The notes under the pieces are model-generated. The model did no database searches. It was not told the origin of the DNA and saw nothing but the letters and a program-made list of their open reading frames with translations. 64,000 nucleotides of DNA from assembly GCA_965223505.1 (NCBI GenBank), contig CBDCWP010000044.1:64001-128000 (forward strand), given 5' to 3'. The position numbers and the translations under genes were made by a program. Within the stretch, counting starts at the first letter, position 1, and each line of letters opens with the position of its first letter. Below are positions 1 to 32,628 of this stretch, piece by piece. The stretch is from Planctomycetota bacterium. Its GTDB lineage: Bacteria > Planctomycetota > PLA2 > JAEUHO01.

Positions 1-212
1 TCGCTCGGGCCGGGGCCCGCGGCGGGCATCTCGGCCGGCGCCTCGGCGACGGGCGCATCCGCCGGCGTATCGGCGGCGGGCGCATCGGCGACGACGACCG
101 GTCCGCTAGCGGGACTGTCGGCGACGATCACGCGGCGGCCGCGGCAGGCGCCGACGACGAGCACGAGGACCAGAAGGATTGCAATCGGTGCGAGTCGGAT
201 GTTGCGGAACAT
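1..212 (-). CDS. Lipoprotein, 5' part only (runs off window); probable paralog of the secretin at 11135..13900
   Basis: Not in ORF track. Read manually from ATG at 212: MFRNIRLAPIAILLVLVLVVGACRGRRVIVADSPASGPVVVADAPAA..., with a lipobox (VGA/C) and a GAGGAG RBS upstream. The N-terminus resembles LTAC-QGRRRIVA of the secretin. Confidence 0.75.
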   Translation of the reverse strand, partial: MFRNIRLAPIAILLVLVLVVGACRGRRVIVADSPASGPVVVADAPAADTPADAPVAEAPAEMPAAGPGPS

Positions 213-421
213 GGATCTGTTCAGCTCCTCTCGGTGCCGTTCGAAAACAGCGACAAACGATGCGAGAGATTGAGCAGAGACCCTCTCTCTGCCCTGCCTG
301 ACCGAGCCGCTTCCGCGAACGGAACCGACTCCGCCTCCCTACGACGCGATAGAACAATCGAGGGTGGTCACGCCCGTGTCATAAACCGTGACAGGAAAAC
401 GGATTCCGGCGCGTGGGCGGG

Positions 422-2224
422 CTAGCGGCAGACGCGGTTGTAACGGTTCTGTTGGCGGGTCGTCGTGCACAGTTTTCGCGCCGCGTCGCACGCCGCCTCC
501 GCGGCCTCCGATTGTCCCAATTTCTGTAGAATTTTGGCCTTTAGGAGCCACATCTGACAGGTCCAGTGGGGCAACTGCTTGCCCGCCGTCTCGAGGCGCT
601 CGAGCATCGCGGCGTCGCGACCGAGCGCGTTCACGCCGCACCAGGCAACCAACGTCCGCGACGTCTTGCGGCCGAGCTCCCACGCGCGTCCGAAGGCCTG
701 CTCGGCCTGCGCGGCCAGATGGGGGCGGTCGAAGCCCGCGAGGGTCCGACGCGCCTCGCCCAGGCGAAAGTGCGCCTCCGGGTTGGTCGGGTCGCCGTTG
801 GTCGTGATCCGTTCGGCGGCCCGGACGAGGTCGCTCAGCGCCTGGGTGTCCCCCCGCATCTGGGCGGCGCGCACGTCCAGGGCGAGCTGGTTCAGGACGC
901 TCACCAGCCCGATCTTCTCGTGCGGGTCGGGGCGGCGCGCGTTCTCCGGGCCGGGCAGGAACGGCTCCACGATGGCGGAGCCGCCGTAGTACTGGGGCGC
1001 GCTCCCGCCGCGGTCGTCCACCCGCACCTCCAGTTCCTTGTATTCAACAAGGATCTGGTTCAGCCTCGCCAGGTTCTGCGCCGCTTTGGCGGGCTGCAGC
1101 ACGGGCTCCGTGCGCCAGGCCGCGCGCTCGAGCCAGTACGCGCGTCCCTCGCCGACGTCGATGAGGGTGCCGGACGGCGAGACGGCCGCGGCGAGCTGGG
1201 CCCAGCCGTAGCGGTTGTGGCCGTACAGGGACTCGGCCACCCGGGCCCGGTCCGGCGGCTGGGTCCCCGCCATCACGTCCCGGCCCATGCCCGGCCCCTC
1301 GACGGCGGGCCAGGGCACGCCGCACAGGCCCGCCAGCGTCGGGGCGACGTCGGCGATGTCGGCGGGATCCGAGCGTACGCCGGCCGGGATGCCGGGGCCG
1401 GCGAGCAGGAACGGGACGCGCAGCGTGGCATCGCCGAGCAGGATGCCGTGACTGGCCTCGCCGAGGTTGCCCAGGCCCTCGCCGTGGTCGGCCGTGAGCA
1501 GGATCAAGGCATCGCCGCGGCCTGCGGCGCGCAGGCCCTTGCGCAGGCGGCCGAAGATGGCGTCGGCGGCCTTGACGTCGTCGACGTAGCGTCCGGTCGT
1601 GTACGGCGCATGGGGCTCGAAGATGTGCACGAAGAGGAACAGCGGCTGCTCCGTGCCGGCCTCCCGGGCGTACCGAACCGCGGCGTCGACGGTGTCGGCG
1701 CCCGGCCGCTCCGCGACGTTCAGGGCGTCCGTGTCGCCGAGATCGCCGTCGTCGTAGCGGTCGAAGCCCTGGTCGAGCCCGAATCCGGCGGCCAGGACAC
1801 CGGCGGAGACGAACGCGCCCGTCCGCCAGCCCGCGGCCTGGAGCCGCTCCGCCAGCAACGGGAAGCCGCGCGTGTCCGGCGGGCGCAGACGGCCGAAGGT
1901 GTTCAGCCGTACGCCGGTGGCAGCCGGCGGTCGCCCGGTCAGCATGGTGGTGTGTCCGGGGAGCGTGAGCGGCACCGGGGAGCGGGCGTCGTCGAAGCGC
2001 AGGCCCGACTCGGCCCAGGCGTCGATGTTGGGGGTGCGTACCGGCGGACGCTCGCCGTCGGGCGTGTAGACGGAGACGTGATCGCGCCGCAGCGTGTCGA
2101 TCGCGAAGAGCACGATCGTGCGCGACGCGCCGCGGTTCAGCTCGGTCGCGCGCCAAGGCTGCCAGATGGCCAGGCCGATGGCGGCCAGGACGGCAATCGA
2201 GAGACCCCACATCCGATGCGACAT
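422..2224 (-). CDS. Sulfatase/alkaline-phosphatase superfamily hydrolase with N-terminal TM/signal and C-terminal TPR-like region
   Basis: Motifs IDTLRRDH, TPNID, PLTLPGHTTMLTG, HIFEPHAPY, TADHGE, VPFLL and DVAPT. Confidence 0.85.
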   Translation of the reverse strand: MSHRMWGLSIAVLAAIGLAIWQPWRATELNRGASRTIVLFAIDTLRRDHVSVYTPDGERPPVRTPNIDAWAESGLRFDDARSPVPLTLPGHTTMLTGRPPAATGVRLNTFGRLRPPDTRGFPLLAERLQAAGWRTGAFVSAGVLAAGFGLDQGFDRYDDGDLGDTDALNVAERPGADTVDAAVRYAREAGTEQPLFLFVHIFEPHAPYTTGRYVDDVKAADAIFGRLRKGLRAAGRGDALILLTADHGEGLGNLGEASHGILLGDATLRVPFLLAGPGIPAGVRSDPADIADVAPTLAGLCGVPWPAVEGPGMGRDVMAGTQPPDRARVAESLYGHNRYGWAQLAAAVSPSGTLIDVGEGRAYWLERAAWRTEPVLQPAKAAQNLARLNQILVEYKELEVRVDDRGGSAPQYYGGSAIVEPFLPGPENARRPDPHEKIGLVSVLNQLALDVRAAQMRGDTQALSDLVRAAERITTNGDPTNPEAHFRLGEARRTLAGFDRPHLAAQAEQAFGRAWELGRKTSRTLVAWCGVNALGRDAAMLERLETAGKQLPHWTCQMWLLKAKILQKLGQSEAAEAACDAARKLCTTTRQQNRYNRVCR

Positions 2225-2353
2225 GGGGGGACTGTATCAGGGGTGCGGGTGCGCGCATCGGACCCGCACCCCGTCACCGATGCCGCCCCCGCGCCGGATC
2301 CCGGCGCCCGGATCGGTATCGGGTTGGGAGACCCGACCGGTCGGGTTCGGACG

Positions 2354-2968
2354 CTACGGCGCGACGCGGTTCTTCAGCGGCGACTGGGTGCCTTCGAAGT
2401 GCACCTTGCTCAAGCCGGCGGCGACGAACGTGTCCAGCACGCGGATCACGTCGCCGTGCGGCACGCTCATGCCGTACGGCGGCGGCGCCACGATCTCGGC
2501 GCGCGTTTCGGGATCGCGGTCGACGAACGCCCACTTGGCCTCGATCACGCGCTGAATCCGTTCCATGACCTCGTCGTACGCGGCAATCCGCGACGCCTCG
2601 TTGCTCTTGTCGATGCTCCACTCGCCGGCCGGCAAGCGGTACGTGTGACTGCCGTCGATCTTCACGAGCGTGTACGCCTCTGCGGGATTCTCGCGGTTCT
2701 TGCGGAACAGCTTGATCTTGATCCGCGGCGCCGTGTCCTCGATGAGTTTGGGAATGTCGGTCGGCCCGCGGTCCTTGGGCATGCTGGCGTCGATGCGTTG
2801 GTCGACGGTTTTGAACTTCAGGCTGAGCAGGAAGAAGATGATGAGCTGAAACACGATGTCGATCATCGGTGTCATGTTCATCTCGGTGTCGTCCCCGGTG
2901 GCCCAGACGGTGGGTCTGCGCCCACTGCCGTCACTCGGGGGAGACCCTGCGTTGGAAGAGTCTGTCAT
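2354..2968 (-). CDS. ExbD/TolR family biopolymer transport protein (copy 3)
   Basis: EMNMTPMIDIVFQLIIFFLL TM motif with the conserved Asp, and C-terminal VPHGDVIRVLD. Start moved to ATG 2968, which has an AGGAG RBS. Confidence 0.85.
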   Translation of the reverse strand: MTDSSNAGSPPSDGSGRRPTVWATGDDTEMNMTPMIDIVFQLIIFFLLSLKFKTVDQRIDASMPKDRGPTDIPKLIEDTAPRIKIKLFRKNRENPAEAYTLVKIDGSHTYRLPAGEWSIDKSNEASRIAAYDEVMERIQRVIEAKWAFVDRDPETRAEIVAPPPYGMSVPHGDVIRVLDTFVAAGLSKVHFEGTQSPLKNRVAP

Positions 2969-3034
2969 TTGTCCGCTCCTGGTGAAGGTGCGGACGGCCG
3001 AACACGGATGTGTCGGCGAACGGGGGTCTGCCGA

Positions 3035-3063
3035 CAGCTTACCTTGGTAGGCGAACGCGACAA
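3035..3063 (-). promoter_or_regulatory. Candidate sigma70-like promoter for exbD copy 3 (TTGTCG-N16-TAAGCT)
   Basis: Read on the minus strand; followed by a TGTCGGC/GCCGACA hairpin in the leader. Confidence 0.35.
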
Positions 3064-3277
3064 CAGGGAGAAAGTCGTTCGGGCTTGGGCGACGCGCGCT
3101 GCTCACTCGCATACGGGAAGCGGGAGCGAGGCCGGGACCGGGAGCGGCGTCAACGGCCGTCGATGAGTGCGCGGAGCGACCGCCGTGCGCCGAGGGCTCC
3201 GCTCGACACTCCCGCTAGCCGTTTGCAGAACGGAAGCTGGGCGTCACGCAATGTCGCGTTGGATCGACGACCAACGG

Positions 3278-3859
3278 CTACTTCTGCAGTCCTTGCCCGG
3301 TCATGGTGCCGCCTTCGCTGCTGCGCAGCGGCGGAGCCGCACCCTCGAAGACGACCTGCTGGATGCCGATGTCCACCAGCATGTCCAGCACGCGCACGAT
3401 GTCGCCGTGCGGAACCGCGCCGCCGTCCGGCGGCATCGCGGCGATCTCGCCCTTCACTTCGGGGCTGCGCTGCTGCGCCGCGAACTTCGCGTCGACGACC
3501 TGCTTGATCTGCCCGAACAGGTTGTCGTACAGCGCGAGCCGCGCTTCCGAACCCTTTGCATCCTTCGGCCACGGGCCCTTCGGCAGGTTGAACGTGTGGG
3601 TGTTGTCGATGCGGATCTTCGTGTACGCCTCGAGCTCCTTGCCCTTCTCCTTGCGGAAGAGCTTCACCTTGATCTTCTCGAATTCCGGCGGGAAGGAGGG
3701 CGTGGGGGCCAGGCCGCGGTCCTTCGGCAGCTGGCTGTCGATGCGTCGGTCCACCTCTTTGAACTTCAGGCTGAGCAGGAAGAAGATGATGAGCTGGAAC
3801 ACGATGTCGATCATCGGCGTCATGTTCATTTCGGTGTCGTCGCCTTGCGCGATGTCCAT
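3278..3859 (-). CDS. ExbD/TolR family protein (copy 2)
   Basis: EMNMTPMIDIVFQLIIFFLLSLKFK motif; AGGAG RBS overlapping the upstream stop. Confidence 0.9.
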   Translation of the reverse strand: MDIAQGDDTEMNMTPMIDIVFQLIIFFLLSLKFKEVDRRIDSQLPKDRGLAPTPSFPPEFEKIKVKLFRKEKGKELEAYTKIRIDNTHTFNLPKGPWPKDAKGSEARLALYDNLFGQIKQVVDAKFAAQQRSPEVKGEIAAMPPDGGAVPHGDIVRVLDMLVDIGIQQVVFEGAAPPLRSSEGGTMTGQGLQK

Positions 3860-3868
3860 GATCGACTC

Positions 3869-4381
3869 CTACTTGTCCGTTTCCTTGACCGGCTGCTTCA
3901 CGGCGAACTGCATCTTGTAGATCTTGATCTTCTGGTCCGCACAGACCTGCATGATCCACTGCACGTACTGCCACTTCGCGGCGCGGTCACCGTGGATCAG
4001 GACCGGAATCATGCTCGACGAGTCCGGCTCGCTGAACTTCGGGTCCGCCGTGAGCGCCATGAGCTCTTGACGCAGCGCCCGAAGCGCCATTTCCTGCGCC
4101 ATCGGATCGGCCGACGACAGGCTCCACGAGTTGCCCTTGAACGTGACGGTGCCGTTCGACTCGAGGTTGATGACGAACCGCGGCGTCTTGTCCGTCGGAT
4201 CCTCTTCGTCCTCGATGCCCTTGTACGCGTGCGGAAGATCGACCGGCACGAACTCCTTGGTCGTGAGGTCGATCGTCAGCATGAAGAACACGACCAACAG
4301 GAAGGTCATGTCGATCATCGGCGTGAGGTTCATGTTGGCTTCGTCGGAATCGACGACAGCCTTGCTCCGCTTACCAGCCAT
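3869..4381 (-). CDS. exbD: ExbD/TolR family protein (copy 1)
   Basis: NLTPMIDMTFLLVVFFML, VDLP and VLIHGDRAAKWQYV motifs. Confidence 0.92.
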   Translation of the reverse strand: MAGKRSKAVVDSDEANMNLTPMIDMTFLLVVFFMLTIDLTTKEFVPVDLPHAYKGIEDEEDPTDKTPRFVINLESNGTVTFKGNSWSLSSADPMAQEMALRALRQELMALTADPKFSEPDSSSMIPVLIHGDRAAKWQYVQWIMQVCADQKIKIYKMQFAVKQPVKETDK

Positions 4382-4439
4382 TGCGCCTCCTCGGATTCAC
4401 CGGGTCGGACTTCTTGTTCATCGAGCTGCCAGCGGGCGA

Positions 4440-5132
4440 CTAGCGGCTGCGGAATCGCTCCGTCATATCCTCGAGGATACCGGCGAAGTCGATCGAGATG
4501 CGCGTGGCCTTGTTCCGGAAGTACTGGTACGCGCTCACCGCGGGAATCGCGACGAGCAGACCCAGGAAGGTCGTGACCAGCGCGGCCGAGATCCCACCGG
4601 CGAGGTCCTTCGGCGTCACCTTCGCGCCGAGCGCGACGATGGCTTTGAAGGCCCCGATCATGCCGTACACCGTTCCGAACAGGCCGAGCATCGGCGCGAC
4701 GTTCGAAAGGAACAGCATCCAGCTCACCTTCTGCTGAAGCTTGACGGCCTCGATGCCGGCGGCGGCCTCGATGGCCTCCTTGACCTTCGGGTAGCCCTCG
4801 TTCAGGCGCGGAAGGCCGGCGGCCAATGAGTTCGTCAGGAAGTTCGGCTCCGACTCACAAAGCTCGAGCGCCTCCTGGTACTCATCTTCTTCCAGCAACG
4901 CTTCGAGCTCGTCGATGAGCTCGGGCGGGCAGATCTTGTCGCGCCGCACGTTGACCGAGAACTCGATGACGAGCGCCAACGTCGCGATGGACAGGAAGAT
5001 GATGACCCAACCGATGGCGCCACCCTTGGTCACGACGTCGGAAAGGATCGAGTCGGCGTGTGCGGACGCGGGGAACACGACGGCCGTGAGAACGAAGAGG
5101 GCAGTCAACACTGCGAAGGTCGTCTTGGACAT
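4440..5132 (-). CDS. exbB: MotA/TolQ/ExbB proton channel protein
   Basis: APMLGLFGTVYGMIGAF and LAGGISAALVTTFLGLLVAIPA motifs; start at ATG 5132 with a GGAG RBS. Confidence 0.93.
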   Translation of the reverse strand: MSKTTFAVLTALFVLTAVVFPASAHADSILSDVVTKGGAIGWVIIFLSIATLALVIEFSVNVRRDKICPPELIDELEALLEEDEYQEALELCESEPNFLTNSLAAGLPRLNEGYPKVKEAIEAAAGIEAVKLQQKVSWMLFLSNVAPMLGLFGTVYGMIGAFKAIVALGAKVTPKDLAGGISAALVTTFLGLLVAIPAVSAYQYFRNKATRISIDFAGILEDMTERFRSR

Positions 5133-5359
5133 GGCTCCAAAGCACTCCAAATGGGGGCCCCGAGGGGTTCTCGGGGCGGGCGTACGGGCGTCGAAGGGTA
5201 CCTCCCACGCTTGTTTCTTGCTACTCCGTACCAAGCGCTGGGCGCCGGGTCCGTCGCAGCTTCACGAGGTTGCGCCCTTTTCGGGCCTCCGTCGGGGCGG
5301 CCGCCTCGCGCGATCGGTTGTCGGGTCTCCTGAATCGACCGGGAATGGTGTGGGCCGCG

Positions 5360-6763
5360 CTACTTCCGCGCCCACTCCGTGTCTGAGTAGTTGGACTTGA
5401 GCGCCTTGCGCGCCTGGTCCCGCATCTTCTCGTACATCTCCTTCGCGGCGGGCTTCTTGGCGGACTCGGCCGCCTTCGACGCCGCTTCGGCGAGGTAGTA
5501 GTGGGCCAGCGCCGCCTGGTCCCGGACGCCGAAGTTCTTGACACGCACCGTGTCGAAATGGACCAGCGCCTCGACGGCCTTGCCTTCGTGCAGGTACGCC
5601 AACCCCAGGCCGTTCGAGGCGACCGCCTGCACCTCCGGGTCGCGCGCGCCGCTCACGATCGCGTCGGTCACCGCCTTGGACTGCCCGGCGAACTTCGACT
5701 TCAACGCGTCCGGCATGCCGGCCTCGATGAAGACCCGCAGCCGGTTGTAGGTCGCCGCGTTGTCCGCCTCGAGCGCCTGATCGAGCTTGACCTTCGCTGC
5801 GCGAATCCGCGCCCGACTGTAGTACCGACCGAGCTCGAGCTGGAGGCACTTGCGCATCTCGTTCTTGAGGAGCTGGCTTACGATCGTCAGCGCAGACTGG
5901 TACGCCTTCGACGCGTCCTCCGCGTTGCCCTTTGCTTCCTCGATGATGCCGCCGCCCAGCGCCGCTTCGTACGCCCAGCGAGGCGAGAGCCCGAGCGTGG
6001 CGTCGATCGCGTGACCCTGGAGCTCGTCGAAGACCTTCTTCGCCTCCGGGTACTTGCCGAGCCCCACGAGCGTCTTCGCATGCAGGAGCATCGCCTCGGG
6101 ATACCAGCGGCTGTTGCCGTTGGCGAACCGCGTGAGGAAGCCGCCGGTCGTCTTGAACTCGTCGTCCTCGGCGACCTGGTCCGGCCGCGGCATGTCCACC
6201 AACGCCATCAGGGCCTGCCCGAGGATGTCCTTGTTCTTCTCCTTCATGCCGCGCAGGTACAGCGCCTTGCAATAGAAGAAGTGTGCGTACTCACTCTGCC
6301 AACGGGGGCGCTGGTTGCCCTTCGTCGGGTCGCCGGCCATGAAGCTCTTGTACTTGGGCTCCTCGCCGAGCGTGTCCCAACCGCCGCCGTGGACCGTGAA
6401 CAAGGCCTCTGCGGCTTCCTGATAGCTCCCGCGCCGGATGAGGTCCCGCGCCGACTTGATCGTCTCGGCCTCCGCGTCGTTCACGTCGCCGCGCCGCACG
6501 GACGCGACCTCGATCGTGGGGATCTTCTGCTCGGGGCCCTTCGCGCGCTCGCGGTACATCACGAACTGCCAGGTCTCCGACGTGACCTCGTAGACGGTGC
6601 GCGTCGATCGCTCGCACGTCCGGAGATCGATGACCTCGATCTCGTCCGCGGCGGCCTGCGTCGCAAAGGAGAGTCCCAGGACGAAGAGTCCCAGGAGTGC
6701 CAAGCCTCGAATGGATGCGTGCATGGGTGCGGTCCTCTTGATTGCGTCGTTCATGGCGGCCAC
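5360..6763 (-). CDS. Exported TPR-like protein
   Basis: Signal peptide (LALLGLFVLGLSFATQAAA/D) and helical TPR-like repeats (EAMLLHAKTLVGLGKYPEAKKVFD, NGLGLAYLHEGKAVEALVHF). Start could be 6763, 6754 or 6724. Confidence 0.75.
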   Translation of the reverse strand: MAAMNDAIKRTAPMHASIRGLALLGLFVLGLSFATQAAADEIEVIDLRTCERSTRTVYEVTSETWQFVMYRERAKGPEQKIPTIEVASVRRGDVNDAEAETIKSARDLIRRGSYQEAAEALFTVHGGGWDTLGEEPKYKSFMAGDPTKGNQRPRWQSEYAHFFYCKALYLRGMKEKNKDILGQALMALVDMPRPDQVAEDDEFKTTGGFLTRFANGNSRWYPEAMLLHAKTLVGLGKYPEAKKVFDELQGHAIDATLGLSPRWAYEAALGGGIIEEAKGNAEDASKAYQSALTIVSQLLKNEMRKCLQLELGRYYSRARIRAAKVKLDQALEADNAATYNRLRVFIEAGMPDALKSKFAGQSKAVTDAIVSGARDPEVQAVASNGLGLAYLHEGKAVEALVHFDTVRVKNFGVRDQAALAHYYLAEAASKAAESAKKPAAKEMYEKMRDQARKALKSNYSDTEWARK

Positions 6764-9700
6764 TACTCGTCCCCGTCCCCGTTGGGCTTCGGCTTCTCGG
6801 GTTGCTCGTCGTTCTCTGCGTCCGCGGCCATGTCCTTGGGCATCTTGCGCAGGTCCAACACGAGCTTCGGCTGGATCATGTCGTTGAGCCGCTTCAGTGC
6901 GGTTTCGAGGTCCGCGATGGTCCCCGGCCGCTCCGATTCGCCGAGCCGCGGATAGCGCGACTTGAGGCCGCGCAAGATCTTGCCCGCGTACTCGAGCATC
7001 GTCTTGGCATCCGCCTTGGCGGCGCCGGGGCTCGCACCGCGCGCCCGCTCGGCGGCGTTCAGCATGGCGTTGAGCCGGATGACCTGCGTTTCCCAGAACT
7101 CCTCGGAGTCGTCGTCGACCTGCATGAGCCCGCGCAGCAGCGTGCCGCAGAGGTTGATGGCTTTCACGTCGTCGCCCTCACGGCCCGACTCGGCGTAGGA
7201 CTGCGCAAGCGCCATGCGGAACGAGCGACGGTAGTCGCCGTGGATCCGGTAGAAGACGGCGTCGAAGCCGGCGTTCTTGAACGCCGCCACCGTGCGCTTC
7301 AGCGTCTGGTCGTCTTCCTTCGCCATCTCGCTCTTGAAGCGGCCGAGCGCCTCCTTGTAGGTGCGGTCGGCGCGGGCGCTTTCGAACTTCGGGATGGGCG
7401 TGCCGCCGGGACTCCCGAGCTCCTTGACCGCTTTGCGGAAGCCGGCGACGTCCGACACGCGCGGCATCGGAAAGCGGAAGGAGCGCTTCTCGATCGGGTC
7501 GGTCCACGGCAGGACCACGAAGTCGCCCGCGAGCATGCCGACCAGGAGGTCGTTGTTCTCCGGAATGTTCGCGACCGCGCCTTGCAGCAGCTCGACGGCC
7601 TTCAGATTGAGCTCGCGCGCCGTCTTCTCGTCTTGCGCCGTGCTGGCGAGGTGCGAGTAGATCTTGCCGAGCTTGCCGAGCGCCTTCGAGCGGTCCTCGG
7701 CGGTGATGCCGGGCAGCTTCAGGTAGGCCTCGTTGAGCTCCTTCGCGCGCTCCCAGTTCTCGCGAACCTCGGGCTTGAGCTCCGTCGCGTAGAAGTACAT
7801 GTACGCGAACTTGTACAGATGCGACGGCGTCAGGGACTCCTTCAGCGCGACCATCGTCTTGTACCAGAGATAGTACTTCTCCGCGGCCTTCACCAGGTGC
7901 GGGTACATCTCCAGCTTGTACGCGTCGATCTTCTTGCGCTCTTCGATGAGCTCAGCTTCGAGCGTTTCGCGTTTCGCCGTCAGCTCGCGCAGCTCCTTGT
8001 TCAGCCGCGCGATCGTCTTGATGATGCCGTCGCGGATGAGCTGCTCGTTTGGGTTCTTCTCGTCCTTGAAGTCCGGGCGGCCCTTGAGGTCCTTCTCGGC
8101 CTCGTCGCGCTCCGTCTTGCCGATCTTGGTATCACCGCCGCTCGCCATGGCGCGGTCGTACGTGTCGATCAGCTCCTGCTTCTTGCGGCGTGAGCCGTTG
8201 AGGTCGACGAGACGCTCCGCGACGCGGTTCTCGTCCTTCTCCGCGACCTTGAGCCGGTAGAGCAGGCCCTTGGCGCGTTCGTCTGGCGGACCCTGGATCT
8301 TGGCCAGCGAGGCCTTGAGGTTGGTTTCGATCTCCGAGTACTTGCTCTCGAAGTAGCGGGCCAGCCCGAACGTGATCTTGTGCAGCTTGTTGTAGGTCGG
8401 GTACTTGGCCACGAGCTTGTCGAGGTACTTCTCGGCGTTCTCGATGTCGCCCTTGCCGACGTAGGCCTGCACCTGGTTCCCCAGCGCGCCCGACAGATAC
8501 GGAAGGGGATCGAGGTCGCTGTGTTCGGCGGCGAACGTCTTCAGGAGATCGAGCACCGCGTCCCACTGCTCGAGCTCGACCAACGCGAGGCTCTTCCAGT
8601 AGATGGTTTGGCCGCGCGCCTTGCGTGCACGCTTCGCCCAGTCCGACTCGCTCTGCTTGAACTTCGCCTGCGCGACCGGACCGTCCCAGTACTTCAGGGC
8701 GGCGTCGGACTCCTTGATCATCCCGCGCCAATCCTTGCGGGCGAGCGCGCAGCGAATGATGTAGACGAACGCTTCGTTCTGCAGGCGCGCTTCGGGGTCC
8801 TTCGCAACGCGCCGGAATCCGGACTCCGCCTTCGACAGCGTCGACTTCCAGCCGCTCTTGCCCTCGTTGCGCTCCTTGATCGCCTGCTTGCGGTTGGCGA
8901 TCGCGGCCTGGATCTCGCTTTCCTGCTCGGACGGATGGCCGCGATAGTCGCTCGGGAACGAGTCCTGCACGGCTTTGAAGCGATCGAGATAGATCTTGGC
9001 GTCCGTCTGCACGTAGAGCTGGTCGAGCAGGCCCATCGCCTGTCGTCGAAGGTTGCCCGCCATGACGAGGTTCTCGTCGTTCTCGTCGTTCGTCGTGCGC
9101 GGAATGCGCCCGTCGATCCACGCCTCGTGGATCGGCTCCAGCGCCAGGCTCGCCGACAACAGGTCCCCGAGGTTCTTGTAGCAGATGGCGATCTTGCGCC
9201 ACGACGGGACGCCGAACTTCATCAGGTCGTCCGTGCTGTCGGTCATGGCGACGATCACGCGCTGGTAGGCGCCGATCGCGTCCGTGTAGCGCCCCTTCGA
9301 AAACTGGCTGTCCGCCACGCCCATCAGGACCTCCGCCGACTGGCCGCTGCCGCCGTTGGTGGTCCCGCCGCGCGTCACGAATTTCTCGAGCAGATCGTTG
9401 GCCTTCTTCTCGAGGTAGCCCTTGCCCTTCTCGCTCGCGATGCTGGCGGCCTGGCTGGCGATCTTGATCGCCTCGTTGGTCCGATCCTGGGCGTCCTCGA
9501 GCCGCGCCCACTGCAGGAGCGCGTGGATGCCGTCGTCCGTGTCACCGATCGTCGGGTGCCGCACCATCATCTTCTTGAGGTACGTGCTCCCGGTGCGCAG
9601 GAAGTTCTCCCCACCGACGCGGCCGGCGCTCAGGCAGAGCTGGCCGATGTGGTTGTAGCCGCGCGCGATGATGCGCAGCGTGTCCCCGTCCACGTGCTGG

Positions 9701-10563
9701 GTCTCGACCGTGGTGTCGAACCACTGCAGCGACTGGCGGTACCAGCTGAGTTGATCTTCCTCGCGCTGGGCGCACTTCGCGAGCTCCCAAAGCGCCTGTC
9801 CGTAGATGTCGGATGCGTACGCCGCGACGGTCTCGCCGTCGAAGAACCCGATGAACTCGTCCAGGTCGTTGTTGACCGACTTCAGCGCGTTCTCCGCCTG
9901 CGCGCTGCACGGATCGTGCACGAGCGCCGCGTAGAACTTGCAGACCACGAAGTAGTACTGCGCGATCTGCTGCATCGCGGTCGCCTTCTCGTCGTCCCAG
10001 CCGCGGCGCAGGGTGTCGAAGTAGCTGATGGCGCCCTCGACCATGTCGCGCGCGTCCGCTTGCACCTGCGTCGCGTTCGTTCCGCGCTCCTCCATCATCT
10101 CGGGCTCGCTCATGAGCCGGCTCTGCGCCCACTGGACGAACTCGAGGCGCGTCGTTCCGATCAGGTTCTTCGCCTCGTTGACGCGCGGGTGATCGGCGTT
10201 CTTGCGAACGAACGTCTCCATGTCCTCGACCGCGCTCTTGAAGAGCTTCACGACCTGCTCGTACGGAACGTCCGGGTTCGCGCGGGCGGCGATCGCGGCG
10301 TTGCGCGTGAGATCCGCGAGGCCGTACTTGGCGAGGTCCTTCTCGGACTCGCTGCGGTTCCGGTCGTCGAGCATGCGCTGGTAGACCTTGCGCGCGAGGT
10401 CGAACCACGACGAGTCGGCGGTCTGACGGCCCTTGGCGGCCAGCTGTTGGCCGAACTCGAAGTCGTCACTGCCCGCGCAGGCGGACGGCGTGCCGAAGGC
10501 GAGCAAGAGGAGAGAGAGGAATACCGTGGGGAGAACCAGACGTCGTACGCGACGAGTCAACAT
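6763..10563 (-). CDS. Large exported TPR/alpha-solenoid protein with coiled-coil segment (1266 aa)
   Basis: Signal peptide, many TPR-like repeats (e.g. VADSQFSKGRYTDAIGAYQRV), host-like codon usage, AAGGAAG RBS; coupled to the next gene. Confidence 0.8.
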   Translation of the reverse strand: MLTRRVRRLVLPTVFLSLLLLAFGTPSACAGSDDFEFGQQLAAKGRQTADSSWFDLARKVYQRMLDDRNRSESEKDLAKYGLADLTRNAAIAARANPDVPYEQVVKLFKSAVEDMETFVRKNADHPRVNEAKNLIGTTRLEFVQWAQSRLMSEPEMMEERGTNATQVQADARDMVEGAISYFDTLRRGWDDEKATAMQQIAQYYFVVCKFYAALVHDPCSAQAENALKSVNNDLDEFIGFFDGETVAAYASDIYGQALWELAKCAQREEDQLSWYRQSLQWFDTTVETQHVDGDTLRIIARGYNHIGQLCLSAGRVGGENFLRTGSTYLKKMMVRHPTIGDTDDGIHALLQWARLEDAQDRTNEAIKIASQAASIASEKGKGYLEKKANDLLEKFVTRGGTTNGGSGQSAEVLMGVADSQFSKGRYTDAIGAYQRVIVAMTDSTDDLMKFGVPSWRKIAICYKNLGDLLSASLALEPIHEAWIDGRIPRTTNDENDENLVMAGNLRRQAMGLLDQLYVQTDAKIYLDRFKAVQDSFPSDYRGHPSEQESEIQAAIANRKQAIKERNEGKSGWKSTLSKAESGFRRVAKDPEARLQNEAFVYIIRCALARKDWRGMIKESDAALKYWDGPVAQAKFKQSESDWAKRARKARGQTIYWKSLALVELEQWDAVLDLLKTFAAEHSDLDPLPYLSGALGNQVQAYVGKGDIENAEKYLDKLVAKYPTYNKLHKITFGLARYFESKYSEIETNLKASLAKIQGPPDERAKGLLYRLKVAEKDENRVAERLVDLNGSRRKKQELIDTYDRAMASGGDTKIGKTERDEAEKDLKGRPDFKDEKNPNEQLIRDGIIKTIARLNKELRELTAKRETLEAELIEERKKIDAYKLEMYPHLVKAAEKYYLWYKTMVALKESLTPSHLYKFAYMYFYATELKPEVRENWERAKELNEAYLKLPGITAEDRSKALGKLGKIYSHLASTAQDEKTARELNLKAVELLQGAVANIPENNDLLVGMLAGDFVVLPWTDPIEKRSFRFPMPRVSDVAGFRKAVKELGSPGGTPIPKFESARADRTYKEALGRFKSEMAKEDDQTLKRTVAAFKNAGFDAVFYRIHGDYRRSFRMALAQSYAESGREGDDVKAINLCGTLLRGLMQVDDDSEEFWETQVIRLNAMLNAAERARGASPGAAKADAKTMLEYAGKILRGLKSRYPRLGESERPGTIADLETALKRLNDMIQPKLVLDLRKMPKDMAADAENDEQPEKPKPNGDGDE

Positions 10564-10730
10564 GAGAACGCTTCCTTCTCGGGTCGGTCGAATCCAGGAG
10601 CGGATCGGGACGGGGAATGTGTCCGACGGGGCGGCGGGTTCTGGGGTCCCGGCGCTTGCCCTACTGCGTTGCCCACCAGAGCGCGCGAAATAGGGGATGC
10701 GAGCAGCCCACCCGGATTCCCAGGGCGCGG

Positions 10731-10759
10731 ATTCTACGGGTGCCCTCGTAGGGGGTCAA
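10731..10759 (-). promoter_or_regulatory. Sigma70-type promoter TTGACC-N17-TAGAAT for the TPR-TPR-exbB-exbD operon
   Basis: Near-consensus -35 (10754-10759) and -10 (10731-10736) with exact 17-nt spacing. A CTACG/CGTAG inverted repeat lies in the spacer and overlaps the -10. Confidence 0.7.
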
Positions 10760-10981
10760 TCGGACCCGGAACGTTCGTTCCCGGGTTGCCGAAGACCGCG
10801 TGAGGTCGCGCAGTCCGCGCATGGTGAATCGATGGACGGTTGCCCGGTACCAGAAGGGCGAGAGAAGCCGGCGGGAGCGGGTCGGCGCGGCAAGAGCCAC
10901 CATAGCGCAATCGGAAGGCGGTGCAACGGACAAAAGTCGCGCGCTGAGGGGGGCGCCCGATCGAATCGGGATGGGGACGTT

Positions 10982-11048
10982 GTAGCGACCCTCGTGGTCG
11001 CCCAATCCGTCGCCTGCCCCGCTGGGCAGCCACGAGGGCTGCCCCGAC
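10982..11048. repeat. GTAG-family REP doublet (REPIN-like inverted pair)
   Basis: GTAGCGACCCTCGTGGTCGCCC ... GGGCAGCCACGAGGGCTGCCCCGAC; same family as 14867 and 16959. Confidence 0.8.
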
Positions 11049-11074
11049 GCCGACGCATCTTCGGCAACGAATGG

Positions 11075-11105
11075 AAAAGGGGCCGCGCTGAGCGAGCGCG
11101 GCCCC
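11075..11105 (-). terminator. Intrinsic terminator of the secretin gene
   Basis: Minus strand reads GGGGCCGCGCT-CGCTC-AGCGCGGCCCC-TTTT, 30 nt after the stop. Confidence 0.75.
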
Positions 11106-11134
11106 TCTCGGGATGTCCGTGATGTCCGGAAGGA

Positions 11135-13900
11135 CTAGCGGCGGAACCAGCGGCGCGGGTTGCCGACGCCCGGAAGGCCCTTGTCCTCGGGGCCCGTGCT
11201 GTCCGGACAGCCGCACGAGGGCGGAGCCTCGTCGGCCGGCCGCACCGGCGTCCAGCGGTTGGACGGGATCTCCGGCACGTTCAGGTTGTCCTTCGGCTCC
11301 AGCTCCTCCAGGTTCACGATCTCGGCCGTGATGAGGACGAGCAGGTTGCGGCGGTTCACGTAGTTGCCCTTGCGGGACAGCAGGAACGAGAGCACCGGCA
11401 GCTTCGAAAGGAAGGGCGTGCCGCTCTCGAGCGTCTCCTGCTCGTAGAACTTGAGACCGCCGAGCAGCAGCGTGCCGCCGTCGGGCATGTTGACCGTCGT
11501 GCGGACGCGGCTGACGCGCAACTCCGGAATCTGGATGACGACCGGGGCCGACGCCGTGACCGGACCCGAGGCGAGCGACGTGCTGAACGTCGCGATCGGG
11601 CGGGTCAGGACGGCCACCGTCGGGCGCAGCTCCAGGTTCACGAAGCGGCGGTCCGCGGAGACCACCGGGCGGACGTCGAGGACGATGCCGTCGAGGATCG
11701 TCTGGACGACCGGGTTCGCGATGTTGGACGCCTGCGCGATCTCGACCTCGTAGTCAGCCACGTAGGCGACCTGGTTGAGCACCTGCACGTTCGCGCGCTG
11801 CGTGTTGTAGACCGTGACGCGCGGGGCGGTGATCTGCTGGATGCGCTCGCTCTTCTCGACCGCGCGCAGGATCACCTCGATCTGGGTGTCGTCCAGGAAG
11901 GTGTGCTGGAAGGAAAGGCCGCCGGAGCCCGTGAGGACCTCGGGGTTGCCGAGCAGCACGTCGAACAGGTTCTCGACGCGAGCCGAGTAGGCGCCGTCTT
12001 GACCGTCGTTGTAGAAGATACCGGCGTCGTTGGCCGTACCGACCGAGGACGGCTCCGGGTTCACGCCGAACGGCACGCCGAACGGGTTGCCGGGCGACCC
12101 GAAGAAGACGTCGTCCTGGACGACCGCCGTACCGAGACCCGGCACGCCGATGCCCTGCGAGTTGTCGCCCAAGCCGCGCACGTCGACACCGACGTCGCGC
12201 AGGAAGTTGTCCTCGGCCGTCAGGAAGCGGACTTCCAGGTTCACCAGGATGCCCGTGTTCGCGCGGAGCTCCTCGAGAAGGTTGCCGATCTGGTTCAGGA
12301 TCGGCTTCGTGTTGCGCACGATCAGGATGCCGTTGCGCGCCTCGATGTTCGCCGGGTCGTCCCAGGCGCCTTCACCACCGATGGTCTCGCGGATCAGGTC
12401 CGGGAGGTTCTCGGCCGGGAAGATCGGAAGCGGATCCGGGAGCTCCGGCGGCTCCGGCGGCGTGAAGTTCGAGGGCGTCAGGTTGATCTCCTGGCCGACG
12501 AAGTTCTGAATCGCGACGTTGAGATCCTTCACGTCGAAGTAGCGCAGCTTCATGGTGCCGCTGATCTCGTCCTTGGTGGCGATCTTGATGACGCCGCCCT
12601 CGGCGATCCACTTGAGCTCGTAGTCCTCGGTGATGAGGTCCAGCACCGTGGAGACGCTGACGTCGTCGAGCTTGAGCGTGATCTGGACGTCCTCGCCCTT
12701 CTCCTCACGCGCCTTGGCGGTGATGAAGAAGTTGAGGCCGGTCAGGGTGCGCAGCAGGGCGACGGCGTCGTCCAGCGACGCGTCTTCCCAGTTCAGGCCC
12801 TGAATGCGCTGGTTCTCGATGACCGAGAGGATGCCGCCGAGCGACGCGTCCTCTGCCGCGTCGTCCGCGTCGCCGACCGCGCGGGGCTGGCGATGGGCGA
12901 TCTCCTCGAGCCAATCCTCGGGGAACTCGACCGTGCGGACCTGCGGCAGCGCGTCGTTCTCGACCTGCTGCATGATGCGCTTCCACTGGTCGTCGAAGCG
13001 ACGGCGCGCACTGATGTCCTCTTGCATGTGCTGCGCGTCGTAGCTGATCGTCATCAGACGCTCGGCATCGTCGTTCGTCGGGTCTTCGCGCAGGATCTGC
13101 CTCGCGTACTCGCGGGCCAGCTCGTAGTTGCCCTGGCGGAACGCCACGTTGGCTTCCTGGAAGTACGCGTGCATGCGGCCGAGACGACGCTCGCGCTCTG
13201 CGTTCAGCGCGTTCTCCTGCTCGATCTGCGCCTCGCGGATCTGCTCTTCGTGCGCGCTCCGCTCGGCGAGCTCCGACTTGTAGTTCGTGCGGTCGATGAG
13301 ATCGCGAATGCGCTCCGCGCTCATGCCGAAGTCCGCCGTCTCGTCGTACCAGGAGATGATGGCCAACGCCTTGCGGTACTCCTTGACCGCGCCGGCGTAG
13401 TTCTCCTGGCCTTCGAGCGTGCGACCGCGGTCGAGGTAGTTGCGAACCTCGGCGGCCGCCTGCTGGCGACGGACGTCTTCGACGCTCTTGCGCTCGCTCA
13501 TGTACGCGGCCGTCGTGCTGGGACGGTCGGACATGAGGTTCTCGAGCCCGTCGCGCGCTTCGATGTTGCTCGCGTCGAGGTCGAGTGCCTTCGCGAAGAG
13601 ATCCTTCGCCGTGTCGTAGTCGCCCTTGCTGACCGCGTCGTTGGCGCGATCGATGAAGTTCTTGATCAGGAACTTCTGACGGTCGGCTTCGACGGCGGCG
13701 GCGGCGGACTTCTCGTCGAGGTACTCGACGGCTTCCGGTGTCGCGGAGACGTCTCCGCCTTCGCCTTCCGCTTCCGCGACCACGACCGCGGTGTCGTCCG
13801 GCGAGCCGTCGCTCTTGGCGACGATGCGACGACGGCCTTGGCAGGCAGTCAGAGCGACGATCAAGACAGCTACAAAAAGGACGTGAACGGTGCGCTGCAT
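11135..13900 (-). CDS. Secretin-family (GspD/PilQ-like) outer membrane lipoprotein with N-terminal TPRs
   Basis: Lipobox LTA/C; TPR-like repeats; C-terminal secretin motifs VNLEVRFL, APRVTVYNTQRA, GIVLDVRPVVSADRRFV, TTVNMPDGGTLLLGGL, PFLSKLPVLSFL and LLVLITAEIV. Confidence 0.9.
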   Translation of the reverse strand: MQRTVHVLFVAVLIVALTACQGRRRIVAKSDGSPDDTAVVVAEAEGEGGDVSATPEAVEYLDEKSAAAAVEADRQKFLIKNFIDRANDAVSKGDYDTAKDLFAKALDLDASNIEARDGLENLMSDRPSTTAAYMSERKSVEDVRRQQAAAEVRNYLDRGRTLEGQENYAGAVKEYRKALAIISWYDETADFGMSAERIRDLIDRTNYKSELAERSAHEEQIREAQIEQENALNAERERRLGRMHAYFQEANVAFRQGNYELAREYARQILREDPTNDDAERLMTISYDAQHMQEDISARRRFDDQWKRIMQQVENDALPQVRTVEFPEDWLEEIAHRQPRAVGDADDAAEDASLGGILSVIENQRIQGLNWEDASLDDAVALLRTLTGLNFFITAKAREEKGEDVQITLKLDDVSVSTVLDLITEDYELKWIAEGGVIKIATKDEISGTMKLRYFDVKDLNVAIQNFVGQEINLTPSNFTPPEPPELPDPLPIFPAENLPDLIRETIGGEGAWDDPANIEARNGILIVRNTKPILNQIGNLLEELRANTGILVNLEVRFLTAEDNFLRDVGVDVRGLGDNSQGIGVPGLGTAVVQDDVFFGSPGNPFGVPFGVNPEPSSVGTANDAGIFYNDGQDGAYSARVENLFDVLLGNPEVLTGSGGLSFQHTFLDDTQIEVILRAVEKSERIQQITAPRVTVYNTQRANVQVLNQVAYVADYEVEIAQASNIANPVVQTILDGIVLDVRPVVSADRRFVNLELRPTVAVLTRPIATFSTSLASGPVTASAPVVIQIPELRVSRVRTTVNMPDGGTLLLGGLKFYEQETLESGTPFLSKLPVLSFLLSRKGNYVNRRNLLVLITAEIVNLEELEPKDNLNVPEIPSNRWTPVRPADEAPPSCGCPDSTGPEDKGLPGVGNPRRWFRR

Positions 13901-15582: not shown

Positions 15583-15680
15583 CGGCCCGAATGTAGGGGA
15601 TGGGATAGGAGGTGGCAGCCCTGATCCTCGGTCGTGCCAAGTGTGTTTACGGCATCAGCCGAGGAAGGAACTGCCACCCC

Positions 15681-30714: not shown

Positions 30715-32628
30715 ATGCCCAGTGTCGGACTCGGGGTGACGATCGGCAGCCACTCGCTGCGCGCCGTGAAGCTGCGCCGCAAGGGTGAGGGGTTCGTGGT
30801 GCAGCGCGTGTTCTCGGACCGCGTGGACGACTCGACCCGTCCGGTGGCCGGCCGTGCGCTGGCTGCCCGCGGTTTCAAGGGAACGGACGCCACGCTCGGG
30901 CTGACCGGACGCGACGTCATCATCCGCTACACGCAGGTGCCGCCCGTCCCGGACTGGCGACTGCGCAACCTGATGAAGTTCGAGGTCGAGGAGGTGAGCA
31001 GCCAGTCGGGCGGCGACGTGTCGGCCGACTACCGCAAGCTCAACCTGCCCGACCCCGAAGCCGAGCGTGACGACGACACGATTCTCGTCGCCCTGGCGCG
31101 CAACCGCCATCTCGACAAGCAGATCCGATCCCTCGACGCCGGCGGCATCAAGCTCGGCGGCGGATGTCCGAACAGCGTCGCGTTGTTCAACGCGTTCGCC
31201 GTCAATGCGACGTACACCGAGGACGAGACGGCGCTTCTGGTCAACATCGGATCGGACAACGTCGACATCGCCATTCAGGAAGGCGGCGAGCTGCTGTTCG
31301 CGCGCAACGCGACGCCCGGCGGTCTCGCGTTCACCGAGGCGGTCAAGACCGCGTTCGGGACCACGGACAGCAAGGCCGAGAAGATGAAGCGTACGAAGGG
31401 TGACGTGACGCCCAAGGGCGAGGCGCGCTACCCGGATCCGACGAGCGAGAAGGTCGCCAACGCGATGATGGGCGTGGCCGGTCAGATGTCGTCCATGATC
31501 CAGTCGACGTTGATGATCGCGAAGGCGCAGACGCGCCTGCCGGAACTGAAGATCGACCGCGTGCTGCTCTCCGGCGGCGGCGCGAGCCTCAAGGGCCTCG
31601 ACAAGTACCTGAAGCAGGCGATGGGCGTCCCGGTCGAGCGGTTCAACCCGTTCGACATCTGCGACCTGAGCCAGCTTGGCGACGACGAAGCGAAGATGAT
31701 CGAAGACGCGCCGCATGAGTTCGCGGTCGCGGTCGGTCTGGCGCAGACGTCGCTGGCGCCGGCGGCGTTCGAGCTCTCGGTGCTGCCCGCAGCGCTGAAG
31801 CGCACGCGCGACTTCCTGAAGAAGGGGATCTACTCGGTCGCCGCCGCGCTGGTCATGGCGGGTGTGCTCGTGCTCATGTACATGGGCCGCAGCGAGGCCT
31901 CGCAGAAGGCGAACGACGACCTCAGGAAGATCTCGCGCAAGCTGAAGGAAGCCGATCGCAAGGACGAGCAGCTCCGCAAGGTGCTCAAGGTCGCGCAAGA
32001 GGAAGAGGTCAAGCACCGCCTGCTCGCGCAGCGTGTCGCGCCGGGCGTCCTGCTCAGCAACGTCTTCGCGGAGCTCGAGAACAACCTCAAGGACAGCAAG
32101 GCGCAGGACATCTACATCAAGGAGATCGACCTGCGGGTGCGCGAGGAGACCAATGCGTTCCAGTACTACAAGCCGCTCCAGGAGAAGAAGAACGCGACGG
32201 GCTACAAGGCGACGACGCGCACGCGCTATCAGAAGCGCGACGCGACGGTACGGGTGCTCGGGCGCATCGGCGGCCGCAACGCGGCCCAGCTCTACCAGGA
32301 CTTCTATCAGGCGTGCCTGAACAACAAGCGCGGCCTGGTCGTGGAGGCGCCCGAGGGTCTGCGCCCGGGGCGCGGCGGACGCGCGAGCGAGTTCGAGCTG
32401 CTGTTTCGGCCCGGCCACTCGCTGCAGCTGGAGCAGGAGAGCGGTCAGCCGCTCGAGATCGTCATGCGCGATCTGAAGCTCGACGACCCCGAGGATCCGA
32501 CGAAGTTCGTCGGGCGCCGCGCGGACGGCGTCCCCATCGAGATCGAGATCGAGAAAGTGGACCGCTCACAACGCAGGCGGCTCCTGGAAGACCTCCAGAG
32601 CGCGGCGAAGCCGGCGGAAGGGAACTAG
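30715..32628 (+). CDS. pilM: PilM-like actin-fold protein fused to a TM and PilN-like coiled-coil/periplasmic region
   Basis: GVTIGSHSLRAVKL, LVNIGSD, GGLAFTEAV, AEKMKR, LLSGGGASLKGL, VPVERFNPF and FAVAVGLA, followed by LSVLP and a TM helix. Real start is ATG 30715. Confidence 0.85.
   Translation: MPSVGLGVTIGSHSLRAVKLRRKGEGFVVQRVFSDRVDDSTRPVAGRALAARGFKGTDATLGLTGRDVIIRYTQVPPVPDWRLRNLMKFEVEEVSSQSGGDVSADYRKLNLPDPEAERDDDTILVALARNRHLDKQIRSLDAGGIKLGGGCPNSVALFNAFAVNATYTEDETALLVNIGSDNVDIAIQEGGELLFARNATPGGLAFTEAVKTAFGTTDSKAEKMKRTKGDVTPKGEARYPDPTSEKVANAMMGVAGQMSSMIQSTLMIAKAQTRLPELKIDRVLLSGGGASLKGLDKYLKQAMGVPVERFNPFDICDLSQLGDDEAKMIEDAPHEFAVAVGLAQTSLAPAAFELSVLPAALKRTRDFLKKGIYSVAAALVMAGVLVLMYMGRSEASQKANDDLRKISRKLKEADRKDEQLRKVLKVAQEEEVKHRLLAQRVAPGVLLSNVFAELENNLKDSKAQDIYIKEIDLRVREETNAFQYYKPLQEKKNATGYKATTRTRYQKRDATVRVLGRIGGRNAAQLYQDFYQACLNNKRGLVVEAPEGLRPGRGGRASEFELLFRPGHSLQLEQESGQPLEIVMRDLKLDDPEDPTKFVGRRADGVPIEIEIEKVDRSQRRRLLEDLQSAAKPAEGN

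Follow-up and report, generated by a model that had tools for sequence, protein, structure and literature searches.

A proton-motor operon between two pilus-type secretin genes in a lineage of Planctomycetota

The gene block and its relatives

The window analysed here is a stretch of 64,000 nucleotides (nt) from a Planctomycetota genome (contig CBDCWP010000044.1 of assembly GCA_965223505.1, positions 64,001 to 128,000), and this work focuses on the block of genes that fills its positions 1-13900. All lie on the minus strand. In order of transcription they are secretin A, a large and a smaller protein with tetratricopeptide repeats (TPR-L and TPR-S), ExbB, ExbD1, ExbD2, ExbD3, a gene of the alkaline phosphatase (AP) superfamily and the start of secretin B (Table 1). 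A motor operon wedged between two pilus-type secretin genes is an unusual arrangement. A preliminary description of this DNA had reported the first seven of these genes as co-oriented, and they do all lie on the minus strand at the positions it gave, with Pfam domains that agree. Its list did not include the AP-superfamily gene, the second secretin, which begins at 212, or a cluster of PilM-like and pseudopilin genes at 28-48 kb. The window has a GC content of 65-72%, and third-position GC marks a single coding frame for each gene. Our Pfam scan covered 172 open reading frames (ORFs) of the window (10 + 23 + 10 + 129); 43 of them were called genes or came from gaps, and the other 129 have 90 residues or more and a third-position GC no lower than 0.60.

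In its lineage the block is a genuine unit whose gene order is conserved. Relatives were sought by scanning genome contigs with an alignment of 21 of the 32 TPR-S homologues; there were 56 pattern matches, and the 15 that were confirmed are the 15 loci compared here. All of them come from metagenome-assembled genomes (MAGs) of Planctomycetota, Planctomycetia or Planctomycetales. Gene order was read from tblastn and ORF classification, and a gene was counted only where the contig reaches its position; six loci end too early for secretin A. The order that recurs is secretin A, TPR-L, TPR-S, exbB, exbD type 1, exbD type 2, AP enzyme and secretin B. The preliminary description had named conservation of the gene neighbourhood as the check on its proposal, and the adjacency of the secretin is kept in all nine relatives whose contig reaches it, as is that of the paralogous secretin at the opposite end (9/9). 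Two of the loci, L010 and L013, come from one MAG (isolate Ww498) and each has a TPR-L/TPR-S/exbB part, so this genome has two copies or is a mixed bin.

Table 1. Features of the block and one gene outside it, with positions in the window and conservation among the relatives (loci with the gene/loci that could be assessed)
Feature	Position	Strand	Description	Loci	Identity to window
Secretin A	11135..13900	-	921 aa, Pfam Secretin + TPR_2	9/9	58-65%
Terminator-like hairpin and T-run	11075..11105	-	read from the sequence; 3' of secretin A		
Sigma-70-like promoter TTGACC-N17-TAGAAT	10731..10759	-	serves the TPR-L operon		
TPR-L	6763..10563	-	1266 aa, weak TPR Pfam matches	15/15	30-42%
TPR-S	5360..6724	-	454 aa from probable start 6724 (equal to P0001); ORF 5360-6763 = 467 aa		39-47%
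ExbB/TolQ-like	4440..5132	-	230 aa from probable start 5132; ORF extends to 5234	13/13	65-86%
ExbD1 (type 1, TolR-like)	3869..4381	-	170 aa, Pfam ExbD, transmembrane Asp	12/12	48-60%
ExbD2 (type 2)	3278..3859	-	193 aa, Pfam ExbD, transmembrane Asp	11/11 (type 2)	
ExbD3 (extra type-2 copy)	2354..2968	-	transmembrane Asp; ORF extends to 3112		
AP-superfamily esterase, membrane-tethered	422..2224	-	600 aa, Pfam Sulfatase, Thr nucleophile motif	10/10, after the exbD array	43-58%
Direct-repeat element ATGAC(A/C)-N6-RTGAC(C)	366..402	-	upstream of secretin B		
Secretin B, N-terminal 70 residues	1..212	-	remainder outside the window; from translation and comparison with relatives' N-termini	9/9	
PilM-like gene	30733..32628	+	Pfam PilM_2; outside the block		

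The motor, its TPR proteins and the esterase

The channel subunit is a clear member of the MotA_ExbB family (PF01618, 93.1 bits vs a cutoff of 22.9) and begins with a signal-like N-terminal segment. Among solved structures it matches TolQ (8odt, 2.9e-13) better than ExbB (5sv0, 2.5e-7). Aligned to 8odt it retains GTV.G and the Thr of the third transmembrane segment (TM3); the conserved TM3 Glu of TolQ and ExbB is replaced by Ala, and 13 of 13 orthologues have Ala or Ser at this place (Ser in two relatives). The protein scores below the equivalog cutoffs of both TolQ (TIGR02796, 81.9 vs 221) and ExbB (TIGR02797, 45.2 vs 206.2). The three ExbD proteins belong to PF02472, with 62.4, 40.8 and 48.2 bits for ExbD1, ExbD2 and ExbD3 vs a cutoff of 25.4. 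ExbD1 matches the tolR model TIGR02801 at 6.6e-11, which is under its cutoff, and all equivalog models of TolQ, ExbB, TolR and ExbD score far under theirs. ExbD2 has a conserved linker after the transmembrane segment (IDRRI..LPKDRG) and a longer periplasmic domain, and its transmembrane part alone aligns to solved ExbD chains. ExbD3 likely begins with the ATG at 2968, which AGGAG precedes by 8 nt.

It had been claimed that all three ExbDs keep the transmembrane Asp. They do, within a TPMID(M/I) motif that aligns it with the Asp of solved ExbD chains, and the residue is present in all 35 ExbD ORFs of the window and relatives that have the TPMID motif. The tree of these 35 rows, from which two ORFs without TPMID were left out (a degenerate one in locus L001 and a partial one in L010), has two deep clades supported at 100/100, one of 14 rows (type 1) and one of 21 (type 2). 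The exbD arrays vary from 2 to 5 genes per locus, with type 2 in 1-4 copies. The surplus type-2 copies cluster within sub-lineages of the tree, so we regard them as recent duplications of a conserved core that is a heterologous type 1/type 2 pair. Three ExbD copies, which the preliminary description made part of its machine, are therefore a fact of the window and not the conserved state. At 6719-9726 of L001 the type 1-type 2 pair is tandemly duplicated and is followed by the degenerate ExbD-like ORF (9085-9726), which lacks both TPMID and the Asp.

An anti-phage defence motor of the Zorya kind was considered and rejected, as PADLOC assigned 0 families to the 8 block proteins submitted (8/8 without a family).

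TonB_C, TolA, Plug/TonB_dep_Rec, TolB, OmpA/Pal and VWA have no Pfam match among the 172 window ORFs, which agrees with the earlier report that TonB/TolA, a TonB-dependent receptor, TolB and Pal are all missing from the window. There is also no TonB-like or von Willebrand factor A (vWA)-type transducer among 32 flank ORFs of the relatives. The 571-nt gap between secretin A and TPR-L was searched for a small adaptor gene, and tblastx gave scattered compositional matches only; the ORFs in this gap have no Pfam match. According to PMC12204202, tonB rarely co-occurs with exbB-exbD, so its absence from the window does not make the organism TonB-less. The block shares with Ton and Tol-Pal the ExbB/TolQ and ExbD/TolR subunits with their transmembrane Asp, and with Tol-Pal a periplasmic TPR protein (CpoB there). 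It differs from both in the missing partners, TonB-dependent transporters included, and in an ExbB that lacks the TM3 Glu.

What the operon does have is two TPR proteins upstream of exbB. The hydrophobic N-terminal segments of both vary among the relatives while the mature N-termini are conserved, G(D/E)DDFEFG or GDDFEFG in TPR-L and DEIxVRD in TPR-S. Such a pattern is expected of signal peptides that are cleaved, not of working membrane anchors, so the two are read as periplasmic or secreted proteins. The AlphaFold2 (AF2) model of TPR-S is good (pLDDT 91.5, pTM 0.87); six beta strands form a domain at residues 27-77, after which comes a solenoid of helical repeats. One of its fold matches is 9hmf_K, a chain from the periplasmic scaffold of the Campylobacter flagellar motor (TMq 0.32), which we take as repeat likeness only. 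A word-indexed search found the 32 homologues of TPR-S mentioned above, and an exhaustive search of 1.84 billion representatives gave 39 at E<=1e-3 and 18 at E<=1e-30. With so few relatives among so many representatives, TPR-S is a lineage-restricted family. TPR-L has no BLASTP similarity to the two other large TPR proteins of the window; in the Atlas it resembles the big TPR proteins of the phyla of the Planctomycetes-Verrucomicrobia-Chlamydiae (PVC) group, and the TPR and ExbD clusters there are generic for PVC. Its score with the CpoB model TIGR02795 is 24.1 against a cutoff of 90.1.

Two published systems resemble this operon. A 2025 paper in Mol Biol Evol describes TPR-tolQ-tolR-tolR clusters in PVC bacteria that are followed by a vWA transducer tethered in the inner membrane, with an SHLS/His transmembrane helix; its description of them does not include secretins (PMC12204202). 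Compared by description, the block shares with that module a TPR gene directly upstream of one tolQ-like and two unlike tolR-like genes, the PVC host and the lack of a TonB or TolA in cis. It differs in having no vWA transducer, a second TPR gene, an AP esterase at the end of the operon and the flanking secretins. The second system is Agl-Glt of Myxococcus (AglR, AglQ and AglS; GltD, GltE, GltG and GltC), in which one TolQ-like subunit and two TolR-like ones are likewise clustered with TPR proteins that are exported (PMC3169522). The block has no GltG-type TonB-like protein, and its outer-membrane parts are secretins and not the Glt beta-barrels. Neither TPR-S nor TPR-L matches the NCBIfam models for GltE (NF033758), GltG (NF033760) or Tgl at E<=0.01.

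We see the motor module as a candidate planctomycetal variant of the PVC TPR-tolQ-tolR-tolR module. It would be a TolQR-type proton motor of 5:2 stoichiometry, with a heterodimer of type 1 and type 2 ExbD. Since no TonB, TolA or vWA-type anchor is encoded in cis, we propose that the secreted TPR proteins take the periplasmic output of the motor.

The enzyme at the end of the operon scores 97.6 bits in Pfam Sulfatase and matches Phosphodiest at 1.2e-9. We reject a sulfatase of the formylglycine type. Aligned to choline sulfatase, the enzyme has T-L-P-G-H in place of C/S-x-P-x-R, with T at the position of the Cys that becomes formylglycine (FGly), and T87 and H91 of this motif are invariant in 9/9 full-length orthologues. 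So are D43, H200, E203, H205, D246, H247 and H259. The Thr motif together with a complete set of invariant metal ligands places it among phosphoesterases or transferases of the Thr-nucleophile type. At its N-terminus the protein is tethered by a transmembrane anchor, or in some relatives by a lipobox; this tether is not conserved and holds no conserved His. The C-terminal part is helical.

The two secretins and a pilus-like gene set

Secretin A scores 90.2 bits in Pfam Secretin (PF00263, cutoff 27.5), and its TPR_2 match covers residues 245-276. It is a predicted lipoprotein, with the lipobox LTAC, then QGRR and an acidic linker. A helical/TPR arm (about 55-317) is followed by N0-like (348-461) and N1-like (496-568) domains and by the secretin domain (680-862). 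The AF2 monomer has a pLDDT of 64 and a pTM of 0.31; the N-terminal helices and N0/N1 are confident (about 70-84 for the N0/N1-like beta-alpha domains) and the secretin core is poorly resolved. The last 55 residues or so (11135-11320) are rich in Pro with spaced Cys, have low model confidence and fit the alignment consensus P.C..P...P..P....PC.

Which class of secretin this is can be approached in several ways. A Foldseek search with the model returns solved secretins of all classes (BfpB 3.7e-17, PilQ 1.3e-15), and the model does not separate these classes. The sequence profile is nearest to PilQ (9sh1/4av2, 2e-17) over N0/N1 and the C-terminus, and its positions 390-610 align with 319-520 of Neisseria meningitidis PilQ. 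After Neisseria PilQ it ranks phage pIV, other PilQ, GspD and RcpA. The Pfam STN match is weak (E 0.005). The best secretin classes are the Amuc_1098 family (NF042912, 113.8 vs a cutoff of 750) and PilQ (TIGR02515, 84.5 vs 284.35), both below membership, and GspD (TIGR02517) gives 65.1 against a cutoff of 351.35. Besides its own, 39 clusters lie at 53% identity or more, and the close orthologues of secretin A are confined to the lineage.

Akkermansia provides a parallel. Its PilQ, Amuc_1098, is an outer-membrane protein with N-terminal TPR and a secretin domain (PMC4960237), and since it has an equal build the fusion of TPR and secretin is already a known PVC type. The Amuc_1098-1102 pilus-like cluster shares with our window a secretin of about 900 residues, the N-terminal TPR (pilotin-like) and a PilM-like relative of Amuc_1101. 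It differs in that the proteins of the window score far below the family cutoffs, and in that here two paralogous secretins flank a motor operon and do not stand beside pilM.

Secretin B, which the window cuts off, has the lipobox VGAC followed by RGRR, so the two secretins share a lipobox and an x-G-R-R start. Full-length secretin B proteins of the relatives are 32-35% identical to secretin A. A tree was built from the C-terminal 600 residues of 18 secretins; a partial copy in L010 and the fragment in the window were excluded. In it secretins A and B separate into two clades, each of 9 rows and supported at 100/100, whose inner topologies mirror each other, and the stems (1.26 + 1.57) far exceed the depth of the crowns. 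Mirrored clades on long stems mean that both secretins already flanked the operon before the lineage radiated and have stayed there. Both are PVC PilQ-type TPR-liposecretins, with lipidation predicted from sequence. HxcQ of Pseudomonas aeruginosa is a liposecretin in a complete, ATP-driven type II secretion system (T2SS), and the N-terminal lipobox that the block secretins share with it suggests self-piloting without a separate pilotin.

A possible conventional partner for these secretins is in the same window. Positions 28133-48203 on the plus strand hold a protein with two FHA domains, PilM, a 1066-residue TPR protein, at least five prepilin-type genes and a 1029-residue protein with a T2SSG domain, with N_methyl and T2SSG Pfam matches within the set and a sigma-54 activator with FHA and GAF domains before it. 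The PilM-like protein matches PilM_2 at 1.1e-21 and scores 148.7 bits with the Amuc_1101 family (cutoff 650) and 107 with pilM (TIGR01175, cutoff 133). The set has no secretin of its own, and PilB/GspE and PilC/GspF (T2SSE, T2SSF) are unmatched in the 172 window ORFs. With PilQ-type secretins and PilM and pseudopilins in one window, a conventional pilus or T2SS-like partner is at hand, and the secretins most likely would serve this PilM/pseudopilin system, which is 17-34 kb away.

This brings in the main alternative to any coupling of motor and secretins, which is that they are simply independent neighbours. The secretins would work with the PilM and pseudopilin proteins and an ATPase encoded elsewhere; the motor would be a separate system with its transducer (TonB, TolA-like or vWA) elsewhere in the genome; and inherited synteny would account for the rest. 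We consider this possible, though somewhat doubtful. The nearest profile match of secretin A to PilQ, an architecture equal to that of Amuc_1098 (PMC4960237), the Amuc_1101-like PilM with its pseudopilins, and the infrequent linkage of tonB to exbBD (PMC12204202) all fit it. Against it, the supplement of PMC12204202 records Planctomycetes without pal, which makes a classical Tol-Pal role unlikely.

Transcription, synteny and a possible coupling of motor to secretins

The preliminary description held a terminator and a new promoter between the secretin and the TPR-exbBD operon as a caveat against its own proposal, and both are present there. After the stop of secretin A there is a GC-rich hairpin of -28 kcal/mol followed by TTTT. 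The hexamers of the TPR-L promoter do not vary among the 12 aligned sequences. Between this promoter and the downstream codons for the mature N-terminus of TPR-L lie 275-410 nt in the window and 11 loci, so the operon has a long leader. Beyond the promoter this leader (10564-10730 in the window) is unconserved, and Rfam gave 0 matches in the window. From here a central operon with its own sigma-70-type promoter would be transcribed, comprising TPR-L, TPR-S, the TolQ-like channel, the ExbD type 1/type 2 pair with its extra type-2 copy and the putative Thr-nucleophile esterase, bracketed by two anciently diverged and separately transcribed PilQ-type TPR-liposecretins.

A different element precedes secretin B. 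Between it and the AP gene lies a direct repeat with an 11-bp period, the core of which is invariant in 10/10 aligned loci (among them L001 11797-11815, L002 16877-16895, L006 15350-15368, L009 10466-10484, L011 15967-15985, L015 13882-13900). A loose form of the pattern is not enriched in the window (4 found vs 4.9 expected). RNAalifold of the leader is weak (-4.3 kcal/mol) and reveals no convincing RNA structure. We think the repeat is probably a DNA site for a regulator. Read on the other strand it may resemble Pho-box half sites.

The esterase and this repeat also enter into the boldest version of the idea. Here the block would be a self-contained, two-secretin, proton-driven trans-envelope machine that gives a polymer or other macromolecule gated passage, inward or outward, with no TonB-like adaptor or dedicated ATPase. 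A TolQ5-ExbD(type 1/type 2) motor would turn or pull TPR-S and TPR-L, and these would grip the arms of the lipid-anchored secretins. The cargo could be organophosphate polymers such as DNA, taken up and cleaved in the periplasm by the Thr-nucleophile phosphoesterase, with control through the direct-repeat site. The block does have everything but the adaptor and has been kept intact, the esterase has complete catalytic residues and sits within the operon, and the conserved repeat resembles a response-regulator site. A table in PMC7660920 places ExbB among the DNA-translocation proteins of Pseudomonas stutzeri. Despite these attractions we think this version is unlikely to be right. The nearby PilM and pseudopilins suggest a conventional filament-driven system, and the esterase is membrane-tethered. 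No secretin is known to be driven by a 5:2 motor alone, and a literature search judged by title or abstract found none, which also counts against it.

The genes on either side of the block must be considered next. The downstream flank has a HAD hydrolase, RidA and Opp ABC genes; 8 of the 9 loci have HAD adjoining secretin B, and L001 has Pirin there. The upstream flank has a family 2 glycosyltransferase (GT2), a methyltransferase and a uracil-DNA glycosylase (UDG). In the window an IS110-family transposase (DEDD_Tnp_IS110 + Transposase_20, 15612-16727, plus strand) lies between methyltransferase and GT2; these two genes directly adjoin each other in L002 and L011, which suggests that only the window genome has the insertion.

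A further possibility is exopolymer export. TPR scaffolds in an AlgK/BcsC-like role might lead slime or a polysaccharide towards the secretins, which would serve as nozzles, with the motor giving energy or anchoring and the AP enzyme decorating the polymer as a phosphoethanolamine- or phosphoglycerol-transferase would. Secretins have been linked to slime export of gliding bacteria (PMC12475490). GT2, methyltransferase and asparagine-synthase-like genes are only a few kb away from the block. In synthase-dependent polysaccharide export a TPR protein is a standard component in the periplasm, as the introduction of a paper cited for this states. The block itself, however, is without a synthase, Wza or polysaccharide co-polymerase, UDG and the methyltransferase separate GT2 from it, and the link of TPR-S to AlgK-type proteins is generic TPR likeness in both sequence and fold. 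This explanation is very improbable in our opinion.

Our own tentative preference is for a functional coupling in which the motor operon is an accessory of the secretins, serving their assembly, their anchoring to peptidoglycan or their gating. We would not put it higher than that. Coupling is plausible given an adjacency that is two-sided and long kept within one narrow lineage; UDG, the methyltransferase and HAD are flipped in several loci, Pirin has come in at L001 and IS110 in the window, yet no junction within the block is broken. Paralogous secretins flanking the operon in 9/9 and 9/9 loci, with junctions intact while the flanks rearranged, argue against independent neighbours. The restriction of both TPR-S and the close secretin A orthologues to this lineage also favours coupling. 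There are precedents for a Ton-type protein acting on a secretin from the inner membrane. ExeB of the Aeromonas ExeA/ExeB (GspA/GspB) pair has 39% similarity to TonB; it binds the ExeD secretin at N0N1, and assembly of that secretin requires it (PMC4098917). That pair differs from the block in being a single TonB-like protein with an ATPase-like ExeA, and it has no ExbB/ExbD motor or TPR proteins. PMC8811193 reports that loss of TonB2 in Acinetobacter lowers transformation that depends on type IV pili, and also cites a TonB homologue needed for type IV pili in Pseudomonas. In this reading the motor's TPR proteins may contact the secretins.

A number of observations weigh against this preference. 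A crude scan finds a similar hairpin and T-run 3' of secretin A in 8 of 10 loci, window included. The promoter pattern TTGAC-N18-TANAAT is found exactly once in 11 of the 15 loci and always upstream of TPR-L, while the direct repeat occurs once per locus and is absent from the other two units. Different upstream signals point to three transcription units with no sign of common regulation, as independent neighbours would have. The upstream flank is itself syntenic (methyltransferase 56-62%, UDG 56-74%), and since housekeeping flanks are shared as well, adjacency alone is weak evidence and partly inherited synteny, which again suits independent neighbours. All 15 loci belong to one narrow lineage. 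TPR-S finds only generic TPR folds in the PDB (TM-scores 0.15-0.40), and the PVC module, as published, carries a vWA transducer and no secretins. With no PilB/GspE or PilC/GspF in the window, the pilus link is also an inference. The preliminary description had read the locus as a proton-driven machine in which TPR scaffolds couple the motor to a secretin pore. The conserved neighbourhood and the missing cis transducer speak for that reading; the coupling it needs is contested by the separate units, the shared flanks and the pilus-type partner.

The question matters beyond this lineage. Motors of the 5:2 type (MotAB, ExbBD, TolQR, AglRQS, GldLM, ZorAB) keep gaining outputs, and the question which of them occur in PVC bacteria was raised in print in 2025. 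Our literature search, judged by title or abstract, did not turn up a report of an ExbBD-secretin cluster in Planctomycetes. A motor operon without a cis transducer, with lineage-specific TPR proteins and placed between paralogous secretins, is a testable candidate for a new motor output. According to an old observation, export through secretins depends on the proton-motive force, and a proton motor acting on a secretin, if true, would revive it. If motor and secretins are instead independent neighbours, what the block defines is still a TPR family that is new and a variant of the PVC motor module that lacks vWA.

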